DNA of 32,000 nucleotides from Polynucleobacter necessarius (GCF_900095195.1 NZ_LT606950.1:180001-212000); one strand, 5' to 3'. Shown: positions 1 to 32,000, counted from the first letter of the stretch. The notes: generated by a model from the letters alone, not told the origin. Numbers and translations are program-made.

Positions 1-358
1 TTGACATTTTCATCAAGATGAATGGCTGAAGGTTCGTAATCGCGATTAGTAAATATCGTTTGAACACCCAATTCTTTTGCAATTAGCGGAATGCACTCTG
101 TGGGTTTGCCATATTGAACGATAAGACCGCCGCCTAGTTTTCTCAGTTCATCAGCAATCTGCTGGATGCCCTGCCAAATAAAGTCGACTCTTCGATCATG
201 TTTCAGGCCATTGGCATCAAGTTCGCCCCGTATTAAGGGTTCAAGAATCTCGGAGTCAAAAAATAAAGGTTAACCAGACCTGTTTGCTCGCTTTTAGGGC
301 GTGATGAAGGGCCGCATTGTCATAAAGGCGAAGGTCGCGCGAAGCCAAACGAGTGCAT
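1..358 (-). pseudogene. phrB: deoxyribodipyrimidine photolyase, 5' part, multiply frameshifted; continues past the left edge
   Basis: Minus-strand translation gives the photolyase N-terminal domain spread over three frames: NALVWLR / RDLRLYDNAALHHALKASKQVWLTFIF / FDSEILEPLIRGELDANGLKHDRRVDFIWQGIQQIADELRKLGGGLIVQYGKPTECIPLIAKELGVQTIFTNRDYEP. The frame breaks near the CGCGCG tract (about 336-341) and in the A6/T6 run at 258-263. The candidate ATG (356-358) is in yet another frame. No ORF of 60 aa or more appears here in the track. Confidence 0.6.
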
Positions 359-366
359 TTTGTATG

Positions 367-382
367 GCCCTAATATTAGGGC
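367..382. repeat. 16-bp perfect palindrome GCCCTAATATTAGGGC in the divergent intergenic region; function unknown
   Basis: Read directly. It lies between the photolyase remnant start (minus) and the DUF218 gene start (plus). Confidence 0.9.
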
Positions 383-440
383 TTATTGAGGAAATTTGTT
401 GGAGGGCTCTACATTAAAAGGGTTAAGATCGACGGTAATC

Positions 441-1259
441 ATGGATACGATCTTTTTTACTCTCTCGAAGATAGTTCAGTTTTGCATTGAGCCCCTGAAT
501 TGGGCGATTGTTTTTGTTTTTCTAGCCCTTCTATTTCTTTCCCTCAGAAAACTACAAATATGTAAGCGGTTTTTACTATTGGCCCTGATTGATTTTTTGA
601 TTGTCGGATGGTTGCCGGCCTCAGAGTTTGGGTTGCAAATTCTGGAAGATGCTATTCCTAAAGCATCTTTATCAAGTTACTCTGAGAGTGATATTGGGGG
701 AATCATTATCTTGGGTGGAGCGGTCGAAGGGGGTCAAATTGCTCAAGATCGTGAAGAGGTTTCTATTTACTCATCAGCAGAAAGAGTGACAAAAGCTTTT
801 GAGTTGATTCGTCAGTATCCAAGCCCCCACTTTATTTTTAGTGGGTTTTCTGGGCGCATTAATCCAACAGGCATCTCCGAGGCTGACGCTTTTAAGCAAC
901 TCATTGCTGAGCAAGGGTTGACTCAAATGACTGATAAAACAGCTCATTATGAAAAGCAATCCCGAAATACCTATGAGAACGTTTTGTATATGAAGCCCAT
1001 GATTCAAGAGTACGGACTGAAGAATGAGGCGGGTTCTTTGAAGCCTTGGTTATTGATTACATCAGCAAGCCACATGTATCGATCGATCAAAATTTTCGAA
1101 AAGCAAGGAATTTCCGTCATTCCCGTTCCCGTCGATTATCAAACGGCAAACAGTCTTCAGTGGAGAGCATTTGATTTAGAAAATGGCATGCAAAATTGGA
1201 ATAAGCTAGTGCATGAAGCTATTGGAACATTGGCGTACTGGTCTACTGGAAAAATCTAG
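441..1259 (+). CDS. DUF218 / YdcF-ElyC-SanA family membrane-anchored protein
   Basis: ORF 396..1259. N-terminal hydrophobic helices are followed by IIILGGAVEGG and LLITSASHMYRSIKIFEKQGISVIPVPVDY, typical of the DUF218 fold. The ATG at 441 (MDTIFF) is a more likely start than the TTG at 396. Confidence 0.7.
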   Translation: MDTIFFTLSKIVQFCIEPLNWAIVFVFLALLFLSLRKLQICKRFLLLALIDFLIVGWLPASEFGLQILEDAIPKASLSSYSESDIGGIIILGGAVEGGQIAQDREEVSIYSSAERVTKAFELIRQYPSPHFIFSGFSGRINPTGISEADAFKQLIAEQGLTQMTDKTAHYEKQSRNTYENVLYMKPMIQEYGLKNEAGSLKPWLLITSASHMYRSIKIFEKQGISVIPVPVDYQTANSLQWRAFDLENGMQNWNKLVHEAIGTLAYWSTGKI

Positions 1260-1324
1260 ATATTCGTTAAAATAGGGAATATGACTAAGGTCAACAAAGC
1301 CCCCAAGATTCCGACCCTGGGTCT

Positions 1325-1912
1325 TTGATCTCTTATTCCGCGAATCATTTGGCTAATCAGTTTTTGATTTCGATGCCAGGGATGGTGGATCCTAATTTTG
1401 CCAATTCAGTTATTTATCTGTTTGAGCATAATGAGCGTGGCGCGATGGGTTTGGTAGTTAATAAACCTACCGAAGTTGATCTGGCTACGTTATTCGACAA
1501 GATCGAATTTAAGCTCGAGATTGCTCCATTGCTGGAGCAATCTGTGTACTTTGGTGGGCCAGTACAAGTAGAGCGCGGTTTTGTTCTTCACGAGTCTAAT
1601 CCACAACTCTCTTACAGCTCTTCGCTCATTATTCCGGGTGGATTGACGATGACTACGTCAAAAGACGTCCTTGAGGCAGTTGCTTTGGGGAATGGCCCAA
1701 GGAAATTCTTGATGACCTTGGGTTATGCGGGATGGGGTGCTGGCCAACTCGAAGAAGAAATTACCTTAAATGGCTGGATGAATGTACCCCTATCGCGCGA
1801 GCAAATGATGGACATTATTTTCAATACACCCTACAGTCGGCGTTACGAAAAGATTATGAGTTACCTTGGGTTTGATTTATCTGCGCTGTCTGGTGAGGCG
1901 GGGCACGCTTAG
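1325..1912 (+). CDS. yqgE: YqgE/AlgH family protein (UPF0301)
   Basis: NQFLISMPGMVDPNFANSVIYLFEHNERGAMGLVVNKP is the family signature. TTG start. Conserved yqgE-ruvX pairing. Confidence 0.85.
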   Translation: MISYSANHLANQFLISMPGMVDPNFANSVIYLFEHNERGAMGLVVNKPTEVDLATLFDKIEFKLEIAPLLEQSVYFGGPVQVERGFVLHESNPQLSYSSSLIIPGGLTMTTSKDVLEAVALGNGPRKFLMTLGYAGWGAGQLEEEITLNGWMNVPLSREQMMDIIFNTPYSRRYEKIMSYLGFDLSALSGEAGHA

Positions 1913-29905: not shown

Positions 29906-29940
29906 TTCAGTAAGCAAATAACGGCGCGTTGTCGAACGCT

Positions 29941-30912
29941 TTATTGTGAATATTTCTTCGCTTGCTCGGCGCACATCATCGTAATCACGCCATCTACGTC
30001 GGCTGGCTTATTCCATTTCAAAGTTTTGATTGCCTTATCAGGATTGCCTACGCTCGTAATAATTTCATTTGGTCGAAAGAAGCTCGGCTCAATCTCAACA
30101 TATTGCTGCCAGTCAAGGTCAAAGTATTCGAATGCTTTCGCGACAAAATATTTCAGGGATTCTTGTCTTCCAGTGGCAATCACAAAATCATCAGGCTGAT
30201 CCAGTTGCATCATCAGCCACATTGCCTCAATGTACTCTGGTGCCCAGCCCCAATCTCGGGAAATATCTAAATTACCAAGCTGTAAGGTACTTAGCTGGCC
30301 CGCTTTGATTCGAGCTGCACCAGCGACGATCTTTTGCGTAACGAAACGTTCTGGACGCAAAGGGGACTCATGATTAAACAAGATCCCAGTGCACGCATGT
30401 AATCCATACGATTCGCGATAACTATTAATGAGCCACTTGGCGGTCGATTTTGCGACTGCATAGGGGCTGCGTGGTGCAAAGGGTGTTTGTTCGTTCGCTG
30501 GAGCGCTGCCAGTATCGCCAAAGCATTCACTGGAGCCCGCATTGTAAAAACGTACGGGTTTATTCAATAGTCGAATGACTTCTAGAATATTGAGGGCTCC
30601 AATGGCAATGCTCTCGATAGCCTCAACTGGCTGGTCAAATGACAGCCCTACAGAAGTTTGCCCAGCAAGGTTATAAATCTCATCGGGATCCACTTGCTGA
30701 ATCGCGTTAAAGACGCTTCGAAAGTCGTTAATCGATACCGAAAGAAGTTTGACTTGGGCGCGAATGCCCAATGCATTCAGATTTTCAAAAGAAGAGGCCA
30801 TCACATCGCGTGATGAACCTGTTACTTCATATCCTTTAGATAAGAGGTGCTTTGCTAAGTAAGCACCATCTTGTCCGGTAATGCCGATGATTAATGCTTT
30901 TTTGACAGCCAA
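29941..30912 (-). CDS. gmd: GDP-mannose 4,6-dehydratase (short form)
   Basis: ALIIGITGQDGAYLAKHLLSKGYEV, SSECFG, YAVAK (YxxxK), GILFNHESPLRPERFVTQKI. 323 aa. TTG start 1 nt after the adk stop. Confidence 0.85.
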   Translation of the reverse strand: MAVKKALIIGITGQDGAYLAKHLLSKGYEVTGSSRDVMASSFENLNALGIRAQVKLLSVSINDFRSVFNAIQQVDPDEIYNLAGQTSVGLSFDQPVEAIESIAIGALNILEVIRLLNKPVRFYNAGSSECFGDTGSAPANEQTPFAPRSPYAVAKSTAKWLINSYRESYGLHACTGILFNHESPLRPERFVTQKIVAGAARIKAGQLSTLQLGNLDISRDWGWAPEYIEAMWLMMQLDQPDDFVIATGRQESLKYFVAKAFEYFDLDWQQYVEIEPSFFRPNEIITSVGNPDKAIKTLKWNKPADVDGVITMMCAEQAKKYSQ

Positions 30913-30913
30913 T

Positions 30914-31579
30914 TTACTTTAGAACATCAAGAATTAAGGCAGTGATATTTTCAACGCTACCAGTGCCGCTAACTTTGCGATATGCGGGTGCTTTCACCTT
31001 GTCGCTCGGACTCGCTTGGGCTGCCCAGGAAGTGTAATACACCACAAGTGGACGCGTTTGATCATCGTAGACTTGTAACCGTTTACGGACAGTTTTTTCT
31101 TTGTCGTCATCACGCTGGATCAGTGGATCGCCAGTGACATCATCTTTACCCTCTACTTTTGGTGGGTTGAATTTGATGTGATACGTGCGTCCAGAGGCGG
31201 GGTGAACACGGCGGTCACCCATGCGATCAATAATGGCCTCGAATGGGACATCAATCTCTAATACGTAGTCGATAAGTACACCCGCATCTTTCATGGCTTG
31301 CGCTTGGGGAATGGTTCTGGGAAAACCATCAAACAGATATCCTTTGCTGCAATCGGGTTGTGTCAGGCGATCTTTCACCAAACCAATAATGATGTCATCC
31401 GACACCAGGCCGCCCGCATCCATGATTTTTTTGGCGGCAATTCCTAATTCTGTTCTTGCTTTCACAGCGGCACGCAGCATATCGCCGGTGGAAATCTGTG
31501 GAATGCCAAATTTTTCGCAAATAAACTGAGCTTGTGTGCCTTTACCAGCACCAGGTGCACCGAGCAGAATCAACCGCAT
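30914..31579 (-). CDS. adk: adenylate kinase
   Basis: [21 protein letters not shown]-loop, [20 protein letters not shown]. 221 aa. Confidence 0.97.
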
Positions 31580-31682
31580 TATTTTCCCCCTAGAAGAGCT
31601 GACATTGTCCCGTATTTTGTTGGGATCATTAGTATTGAATGCTTAGGATTATCCCCGAGAACCCTCAAATTCTTTGAAAAAT

Positions 31683-32000
31683 TCAGGGGTTTTTGAAAAG
31701 GCTGCGGATGCGTTCAAGATCTTCTGGTGTGTCTACCGCTGCAGGAGGGGCTATTGGCGTGGTATGAACTGCGATTCGGTAGCCATTCCAGAGCGCGCGT
31801 AGCTGCTCTAGGGCTTCCGCTTGCTCGGGCGGAGCCACCTCTAGTCCGGTGTAAGCCTCTAAAAAATCGGCTCGATAGGCATAGATGCCGAGGTGGCGGA
31901 AATAAACAGTTTTATCTGCTTGTTGCAAGCCACGCACAAAAGGGATTGGTGCTCTCGAAAAATAGAGCGCCTCACCGGATCGATTGAGCACCACCTTAAC
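31683..32000 (-). CDS. kdsB: 3-deoxy-manno-octulosonate cytidylyltransferase, 3' part (continues past the right edge)
   Basis: [14 protein letters not shown]...[17 protein letters not shown]...[20 protein letters not shown] is the KdsB C-terminal region. Conserved kdsB-adk adjacency. Confidence 0.85.

Follow-up and report, generated by a model that had tools for sequence, protein, structure and literature searches.

Genome decay in Polynucleobacter necessarius and other host-restricted bacteria

Polynucleobacter necessarius is an obligate endosymbiont of Euplotes ciliates, whose emended description gives a genome of ~1.6 Mb, a G+C content of 44-46% and "a large number of pseudogenes" (PMC5018217). 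In strain STIR1, 1,279 coding sequences (CDS) were found next to 231-460 pseudogenes in 1.56 Mb (PMC4285135), while another count gives 269 pseudogenes (PMC5632650). For several independently derived Euplotes symbionts, a review reports less coding DNA, more pseudogenes and a reduction driven by drift (PMC11253213). Pseudogene-rich decay is already a published hallmark of P. necessarius. Here, a 32 kb stretch of P. necessarius DNA (NZ_LT606950.1:180001-212000, hereafter the window, with positions counted from its first nucleotide) was analyzed, in which 14 of 42 gene loci are pseudogenes lying between intact housekeeping operons. The best explanation, in which we have high confidence, is that the window is part of an endosymbiont genome in reductive decay under relaxed selection and drift in its host.

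The window shares with STIR1 and the other Euplotes symbionts the species label, a genome of ~1.55-1.56 Mb with ~45% G+C, pseudogenes among intact housekeeping genes and free-living descent. It differs from STIR1 in the exact genome size (1,550,368 bp against 1.56 Mb), in a pseudogene density ~1.5-3 times the STIR1 genome-wide average, and in the state of ribD, ribE and ribBA, which are broken here whereas STIR1 is described as prototrophic for all vitamins (PMC5632650). The excess over the STIR1 average is unremarkable because lesions cluster by operon. The genomes of STIR1 and other Euplotes symbionts were reportedly presented by Boscaro et al. in PNAS in 2013 and in Nat Ecol Evol in 2017, and Burke & Moran are said to have treated pseudogene-rich, host-restricted bacteria in 2011. 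Among the latter, the recently host-restricted Serratia symbiotica and Sodalis are likewise at an early reductive stage, in which pseudogenes abound, selection is relaxed and there is a trend towards deletion. In contrast, no expansion of insertion sequence (IS) elements is visible in the window, where lesions are nonsense mutations, small indels, microhomology deletions and inversions.

Another genome with the same species label, PPGSP2 (LT606947.1), has the syntenic region with a frameshifted tolC, but it is larger (1.89 Mb), only tolC is broken in the block and no pilA1 ORF (open reading frame) is called. Its tolC (L006 17103-18714) carries two frameshifts, near residues 166 and 450, and the other block genes, bar pilA1, are single-frame and near full length. 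Because these lesions lie at other positions than those of the window, tolC was lost independently, which is consistent with parallel decay in a less decayed symbiont genome.

P. necessarius serves as a model of how genome reduction begins in endosymbionts, and the window repeats the published picture. Genuine reductive evolution was in this case recognised from sequence alone, in an initial annotation, and then confirmed. The additions are modest: a lesion-by-lesion map, a split between ancestral and recent lesions by means of a sister strain present in public assemblies, and a hint of strain-specific riboflavin loss.

Fourteen pseudogenes among intact operons

The G+C content of the window is 41-50%, and intact long ORFs alternate with runs of short fragments. 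All eight window proteins that were looked up are identical to RefSeq P. necessarius entries (WP_1146617xx), and the best matches to the 311-aa RibBA ORF, among the species-representative genomes scanned, come from Polynucleobacter spp. (85-89% aa identity). An obligate life in Euplotes is assigned to the window strain through the species description (PMC5018217) and is probable on that ground. The best-matching Polynucleobacter loci are colinear with the window over ~8.6-29 kb, at only 70-77% nucleotide identity.

Intact ORFs of two free-living loci (L003 and L004) were translated and compared with the window by tblastn, and the exact lesions were read from codon-anchored three-way alignments of the window, the sister strain described below and 3-5 intact free-living orthologues per gene. 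The relE and antitoxin lesions are defined against a single free-living orthologue each (L003), and L005 is left out of the UXS alignment, its sequence being the rfbB paralogue. A lesion also present in the sister is called shared, and one absent from it window-only.

In the tblastn comparison, each flagged gene shifts frame or misses a segment. One frame change each is seen in ribE, ribD and one pilin gene, the UXS-like gene is spread over three frames and the TolC-like gene over five segments, ribBA changes frame and contains a stop, gabD lacks ~175 residues, and queC is represented by residues 1-91 followed by 211-245. The 14 pseudogenes are the photolyase, the TolC-like channel, the UXS-like short-chain dehydrogenase/reductase (SDR), gabD, ribBA, four prepilin-type genes, ribD, ribE, relE, its antitoxin and queC; the other 28 genes have intact bodies, tolB with its damaged start among them. 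Pseudogenes and the tolB start together occupy 9.26 kb, or 29% of the window, with one pseudogene per 2.3 kb (0.44/kb).

Five free-living Polynucleobacter loci with conserved synteny served as a control: each of these genes that they carry is one uninterrupted, full-length ORF there, and no disrupted orthologue was found in any of the five. The gene names are backed by NCBIfam and Pfam (TolC family, UXS/dTDP-glucose-dehydratase-type SDR, succinate-semialdehyde dehydrogenase, GspH-like/minor pilins, Phd/YefM and RelE/ParE, QueC). Genes called intact are complete ORFs that align over their whole length with free-living orthologues or NCBIfam profiles, as had been stated for each of those listed in the initial annotation. 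That annotation had also counted about fifteen disrupted genes, from the photolyase to queC, among intact housekeeping operons, and alignment to the free-living orthologues recovers lesions in every one of the genes named, giving 14 pseudogenes and the tolB start. Its density of about one lesion-bearing gene per 2 kb, held to be far above that of free-living bacteria, is imprecise or overstated, given that the one pseudogene per 2.3 kb exceeds the STIR1 figure only ~1.5-3-fold. No tRNA, riboswitch or other RNA gene was found in the window with Rfam (at gathering thresholds) and ARAGORN, hence RNA elements play no part in the decay picture.

The pseudogenes outside the prepilin and riboflavin groups are the following:

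1..395, minus strand: photolyase (phr) pseudogene, N-terminal part; the gene continues past the left end of the window
10730..12290, minus strand: TolC-family outer-membrane channel pseudogene; free-living orthologue of 541 aa, matching TIGR01844
13767..14697, plus strand: UXS-like SDR (UDP-sugar decarboxylase/dehydratase family) pseudogene; free-living orthologue of 311 aa, fragments with 90-97% aa identity
15542..16475, minus strand: gabD (succinate-semialdehyde dehydrogenase) pseudogene; orthologue of 490 aa, matching TIGR01780
22515..23039, minus strand: relE/parE-type toxin and Phd/YefM-type antitoxin pseudogenes; sole free-living orthologues in L003 (PF05016, PF02604)
23148..23441, minus strand: queC remnant; orthologue of 247 aa, matching TIGR00364

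In the photolyase, Pfam PF00875 is split between frame -1 (positions 6-33) and frame -2 (positions 44-109). The frame changes near 339, by a window-only 1-bp deletion, and near 262; the latter change is taken as shared because the window and the sister show no other indel difference there. The sister photolyase is reduced to a 119-aa FAD_binding_7 fragment. In the sister, the 179-bp segment corresponding to window positions 95-273 is inverted, with junctions at a GTTAAC palindrome.

The tolC pseudogene combines shared lesions (TAA at 11701, -1 at 11475, -1 at 10941) with window-only deletions of 17 bp at 12150 and 40 bp at 11261. The UXS-like gene has a window-only -1 at 14073 and a shared -1 at 14424, and its sister copy has four further frameshifts of its own. 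In gabD, -1 at 16087 and -2 at 15825 are shared, and ~540 nt are gone at 15612-15630, of which 446 bp are kept in the sister. The remnant of queC is marked by a shared internal deletion of 433 nt at 23239 and a window-only -8 at 23205. The relE gene has a -1 at 22645 and its antitoxin a -1 at 22923 and a -2 at 22854, with an out-of-frame stretch containing a stop between them; both genes are mostly deleted in the sister.

The lost functions had been described as classes typically lost early in host-restricted or otherwise relaxed lineages, which is a reasonable description rather than an established enrichment. Two of the five free-living relatives lack gabD, and only one of them has the relE/antitoxin pair. 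This patchy presence indicates that these pseudogenes derive from accessory rather than core genes.

Prepilin-type and riboflavin genes

Two further groups of broken genes are the prepilin-type and the riboflavin genes:

17704..18830, minus strand: ribBA with a truncated tail (CAA>TAA and -1)
18990..20734, plus strand: pilA1-pilA4, four prepilin-type (minor pilin/pseudopilin-like) pseudogenes; free-living orthologues of 113, 208, 109 and 199 aa in one operon
20682..21868, plus strand: ribD pseudogene with one lesion, a window-only -1 at 20918 (GGG-TTC vs GGGATTC)
21887..22500, plus strand: ribE pseudogene with one lesion, a window-only -1 at 21972

Five prepilin-type genes had been proposed, and orthology with the free-living operon reduces them to four; the fifth was rejected, as that operon has four genes. 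Prepilin-like N-termini are clear in three of the four orthologues, while the 109-aa protein is less typical and the GspH/ComGE matches are weak. All pilA1 lesions are shared (-14 at 19001, stops at 19016 and 19105), as is the -1 at 19293 in pilA2. The window-only -1 at 19862 is tallied under both pilA2 and pilA3, and pilA3 has in addition a window-only stop at 19964; this gene is intact in the sister. The sole lesion of pilA4 is a window-only -1 at 20606. A 2-kb segment that spans all four pilin pseudogenes and the start of ribD (window 18969-20957; sister contigs L081+L084, 23314-25304) is inverted in the sister. The orientation in the window is that of the free-living relatives, and the breakpoints have in common an imperfect 7-bp inverted microhomology (GATTCTG / CAGGATC).

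The damage to the ribBA tail, which had been flagged, consists of a shared CAA>TAA at codon 312 (17895-17897) and a window-only -1 at 17764. However, the DHBP_synthase (RibB) domain is complete (1-191/191) and GTP_cyclohydro2 stops at 87/165, so that only the second half of the cyclohydrolase-II-like domain is lost. The sister ribD carries five different lesions, including a 435-nt deletion and the inversion breakpoint, and the sister ribE has other lesions, with deletions of 51 nt, 124 nt and more. Despite the broken ribD, ribE and ribBA tail, ribH (17143-17661, minus strand) is an intact ORF in both strains, which differ in it by four nonsynonymous changes and one synonymous change. It may be an unconstrained gene that is still unhit, or may be kept through its coupling to nusB.

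Shared and lineage-specific lesions

The sister strain was found as contigs in other public datasets (Logan SRR32119647, ENA ERZ27248707 and Logan SRR8208349), the first-found contig being 41.6 kb long. Identity is 99.94-99.99% among the three assemblies and 98.4% between them and the window, and the three were taken as one strain that was independently assembled. About a dozen window lesions recur base for base in the sister, in the UXS-like gene, tolC, gabD, ribBA (the stop), queC (the 433-nt deletion), pilA1, pilA2 and the photolyase. As they recur in three other assemblies, these lesions cannot be assembly errors, and sequencing error is excluded for them.

The window-only set comprises photolyase 339, UXS 14073, ribBA 17764, 19862, 19964, pilA4 20606, ribD 20918 and ribE 21972, and the larger lesions, namely the 17- and 40-bp deletions of tolC, the 8-bp deletion of queC, the further 446-bp deletion of gabD and the tolB duplication. 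The same genes carry a different set of lesions in the sister, where two inversions and deletions of 424, 211 and 341 bp also occur.

Frameshifting indels between the window and the sister occur at 4.1/kb in pseudogenes and 5.9/kb in spacers, whereas intact CDS, 21.4 kb in all, has 0.09/kb (Fisher p = 5e-17). The only ones in intact CDS are a ribH indel, three codons away from the stop, and a pyrR insertion of 8 bp in one sister assembly. Of the six 1-bp deletions confined to the window, none hits this intact CDS (P ~8e-4). The 1-bp indels lie mostly in runs of 1-3 bases, with two window-only ones in runs of 4-6 (19863, 20607), and homopolymer slippage or error was accordingly ruled out as their general source. 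With the same genes broken in the sister, the concentration of indels outside intact CDS and the scarcity of long homopolymers, the statistics make sequencing error unlikely for the window-only lesions too.

Neutral drift of broken genes and constraint on intact genes

Substitutions between the window and the sister reach 17.3/kb in pseudogenes and 16.1/kb in intergenic DNA, against 7.7/kb in intact CDS (Fisher p = 4e-12). In intact genes, substitutions are distributed 46/36/82 over the three codon positions, with a third-position excess (p = 2e-5), and dN/dS is 0.32 at a dS of 0.016. In pseudogenes, no significant bias was detected over the codon positions of the ancestral frame. The codon-position counts of relE, the antitoxin and ribE are inflated by misalignment to largely deleted sister regions; without these three genes the distribution is ~49/45/40, hence uniform. 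The pseudogene rate is close to the intergenic rate and to dS, and with the lack of codon bias this indicates that the broken genes drift neutrally, while the third-position excess and the dN/dS of 0.32 indicate that the intact genes are still under selection, though not strong selection. Thus, disrupted genes evolve neutrally and intact genes are constrained. Together with the assignment to an endosymbiont species, this supports the proposal, made when the decay was first noticed, that the window comes from a host-restricted or otherwise relaxed lineage.

The lesions can also be ordered. The ribBA stop is ancestral to the two strains and ribD and ribE have only lineage-specific lesions in both; likewise, the pilA1 and pilA2 lesions are ancestral and those of pilA3 and pilA4 recent. 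From these two strains, the order suggests that decay proceeds stepwise by pathway, as in a "domino" effect, with ribBA followed by ribD/ribE and pilA1/pilA2 followed by pilA3/pilA4. The "domino effect" of gene loss described for Blattabacterium (PMC8382890) is similar in that lesions cluster by pathway or operon and an older shared lesion is followed by independent hits in partner genes. It differs in that the order in the window comes from two strains only and that ribH, which belongs to the same pathway, has kept its ORF intact.

It is possible, although we hold this only tentatively, that the window and its previously unremarked sister amount to a time-resolved record of decay. Such a record would include ancestral and lineage-specific lesions, an indel:substitution ratio of ~0.24 in neutral DNA, independent double hits (ribD, ribE, pilA4), two inversions in dead DNA (179 bp and 2 kb) mediated by microhomology, and the loss, in this strain specifically, of riboflavin synthesis. 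If true, this loss would make the symbiont dependent on host flavins, unlike STIR1.

Explanations for the decay

The scenario that we favor would run as follows. P. necessarius descends from free-living freshwater Polynucleobacter, and inside the host selection would have ceased for photoreactivation, a TolC-type exit channel, pilus/pseudopilus subunits, GABA-shunt catabolism and a UDP-sugar enzyme, as well as for the synthesis of queuosine and riboflavin and for a toxin-antitoxin module. In a small population subject to bottlenecks, drift would then fix nonsense mutations, indels of 1-2 bp, small inversions and microhomology deletions, while the adjacent housekeeping operons (among them pyr, rfb, tol-pal, glyA and adk) remain under purifying, if apparently relaxed, selection. 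Decay is continuing and stepwise, some lesions being older than the split from the sister and others arising later and independently in the same genes.

Several points weigh against this scenario. The cause, relaxed selection and drift in a host, is one that we infer from the pattern and the literature. About half of the window lesions, including the sole lesions of ribD, ribE and pilA4, are window-only 1-bp deletions, for which the support is statistical. Polarised with the outgroup, small indels of the window lineage number ~10 deletions to one insertion, while the sister has about equal numbers of insertions and deletions. Finally, because STIR1 is described as vitamin-prototrophic, a loss of riboflavin synthesis here would have to be strain-specific, or paralogues would have to lie outside the window.

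The alternative that survives best accepts real decay but attributes a minority of the window-only 1-bp deletions (ribD, ribE, pilA4, and the UXS and ribBA tails) to assembly errors, which would leave a few such genes intact. The dependence of ribD, ribE and pilA4 on one window-only 1-bp deletion each and the deletion-only bias among small indels of the window lineage speak for it. Nevertheless, these genes are separately and heavily broken in the sister, which indicates that they were already dispensable. Moreover, their substitution densities are pseudogene-like (ribD 20.9/kb, pilA4 22.2/kb and ribE 13.6/kb, against 7.7/kb in intact CDS), and errors would hit intact genes too. Hence we regard this explanation as improbable.

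It is more doubtful still, and in our view very unlikely, that the split genes remain functional, as two-part proteins, by programmed frameshifting or as phase-variable contingency loci. The complete DHBP-synthase domain upstream of the RibBA stop would fit such a function, and so would tolB, where re-initiation is possible at a TTG 8 nt after the stub stop and the body is lesion-free with 6.3 substitutions/kb. However, the two strains have added different frameshifts and deletions to the fragments, whose evolution is neutral in rate and free of codon-position bias; the lesion sites are mostly neither repeats nor slippery runs, and queC and gabD have large internal deletions.

A free-living lineage that decays by streamlining or in a mutator episode, without host restriction, would accord with the small, streamlined genomes of free-living Polynucleobacter (PMC4285135) and with the variable presence of gabD and the toxin-antitoxin pair in free-living strains. 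This reading is nonetheless extremely unlikely: the window proteins are those of RefSeq P. necessarius, an endosymbiont species, none of the five free-living relatives has these genes disrupted, and streamlining discards DNA and does not keep 29% of a region in the form of pseudogene remnants. Equally implausible is an otherwise intact genome with consensus or homopolymer sequencing errors, which would account for the many single-base deletions absent from a 98.4% identical sister, and for the two in runs of 4-6 bases, but not for a dozen lesions, with the 433-nt deletion and two nonsense substitutions among them, that are the same in three other assemblies, nor for intact CDS nearly free of frameshifting indels, nor for the doubled substitution density and lost codon-position bias of the affected genes, which indel errors cannot yield.

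The tolB start and the intact blocks

The genes that remain around the decayed loci in the window are listed below, with the damaged tolB start:

396..10746, plus strand: intact block DUF218/ElyC-like, yqgE, ruvX, pyrR, pyrB, GT4-like, DUF6492, rfbB, rfbD, rfbA, rfbC, waaC; complete ORFs with end-to-end profile or orthologue matches
12409..13737, plus strand: uppP (bacA) and DUF2721 genes, intact; full length against free-living orthologues
14702..15517, plus strand: trmB, intact; full-length match
16614..17661, minus strand: nusB and ribH, intact; full-length matches
23458..26093, minus strand: ybgF/cpoB, pal and tolB body, intact ORFs; full length against free-living orthologues
26094..26143, minus strand: damaged tolB start, with a window-only 14-bp tandem duplication at 26111-26124 (TGCAGTTTGCTAAA)
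26144..32000, mixed strands: tolA, tolR, tolQ (minus), glyA, nrdR (plus), gmd-like dehydratase, adk and partial kdsB (minus), intact; full-length matches and profiles

Damage to the start region of tolB had been noted from the outset, and is due specifically to the duplication of TGCAGTTTGCTAAA, which produces a 12-codon stub ORF (MLQFAKMQFAKK*). The long ORF of 425 aa reopens at TTG 26093, 8 nt past the TAA of the stub. The restarted product would have a signal peptide that lacks the Lys-Lys n-region, and the tolB body shows no further lesion.

For the genes of 396..10746, the Pfam families are those listed for the near-identical sister proteins, and the block has no frameshifting indel against the ENA sister assembly. 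At pyrR 2804, an 8-bp insertion (CGTTTTCT) near the 3' end truncates PyrR in the sister assembly Logan SRR32119647 (L081). This insertion is absent from the ENA assembly of the same strain (L082) and from the window, and is either a polymorphism or an assembly artefact. In 26144..32000, the sole indel against the sister is a 15-nt in-frame one at tolA 26663, within a Lys/Pro/Glu-rich linker, which is also the only in-frame length difference in intact genes.

Between 3861 and 9700, rfbBDAC, the GT4-like glycosyltransferase gene and the DUF6492 gene are intact and slow (4-8 substitutions/kb), with the exception of rfbC (19.9/kb). This slow evolution suggests that surface polysaccharide synthesis may still be kept inside the host. 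A few intact ORFs differ from the sister mainly by nonsynonymous (N) rather than synonymous (S) changes, namely waaC (9700-10746, 10N:2S), rfbD (7214-8152, 6N:0S), tolA (26144-26968, 7N:1S) and nusB (16614-17141, 5N:0S), and on these small numbers the four genes are candidates for relaxed constraint.

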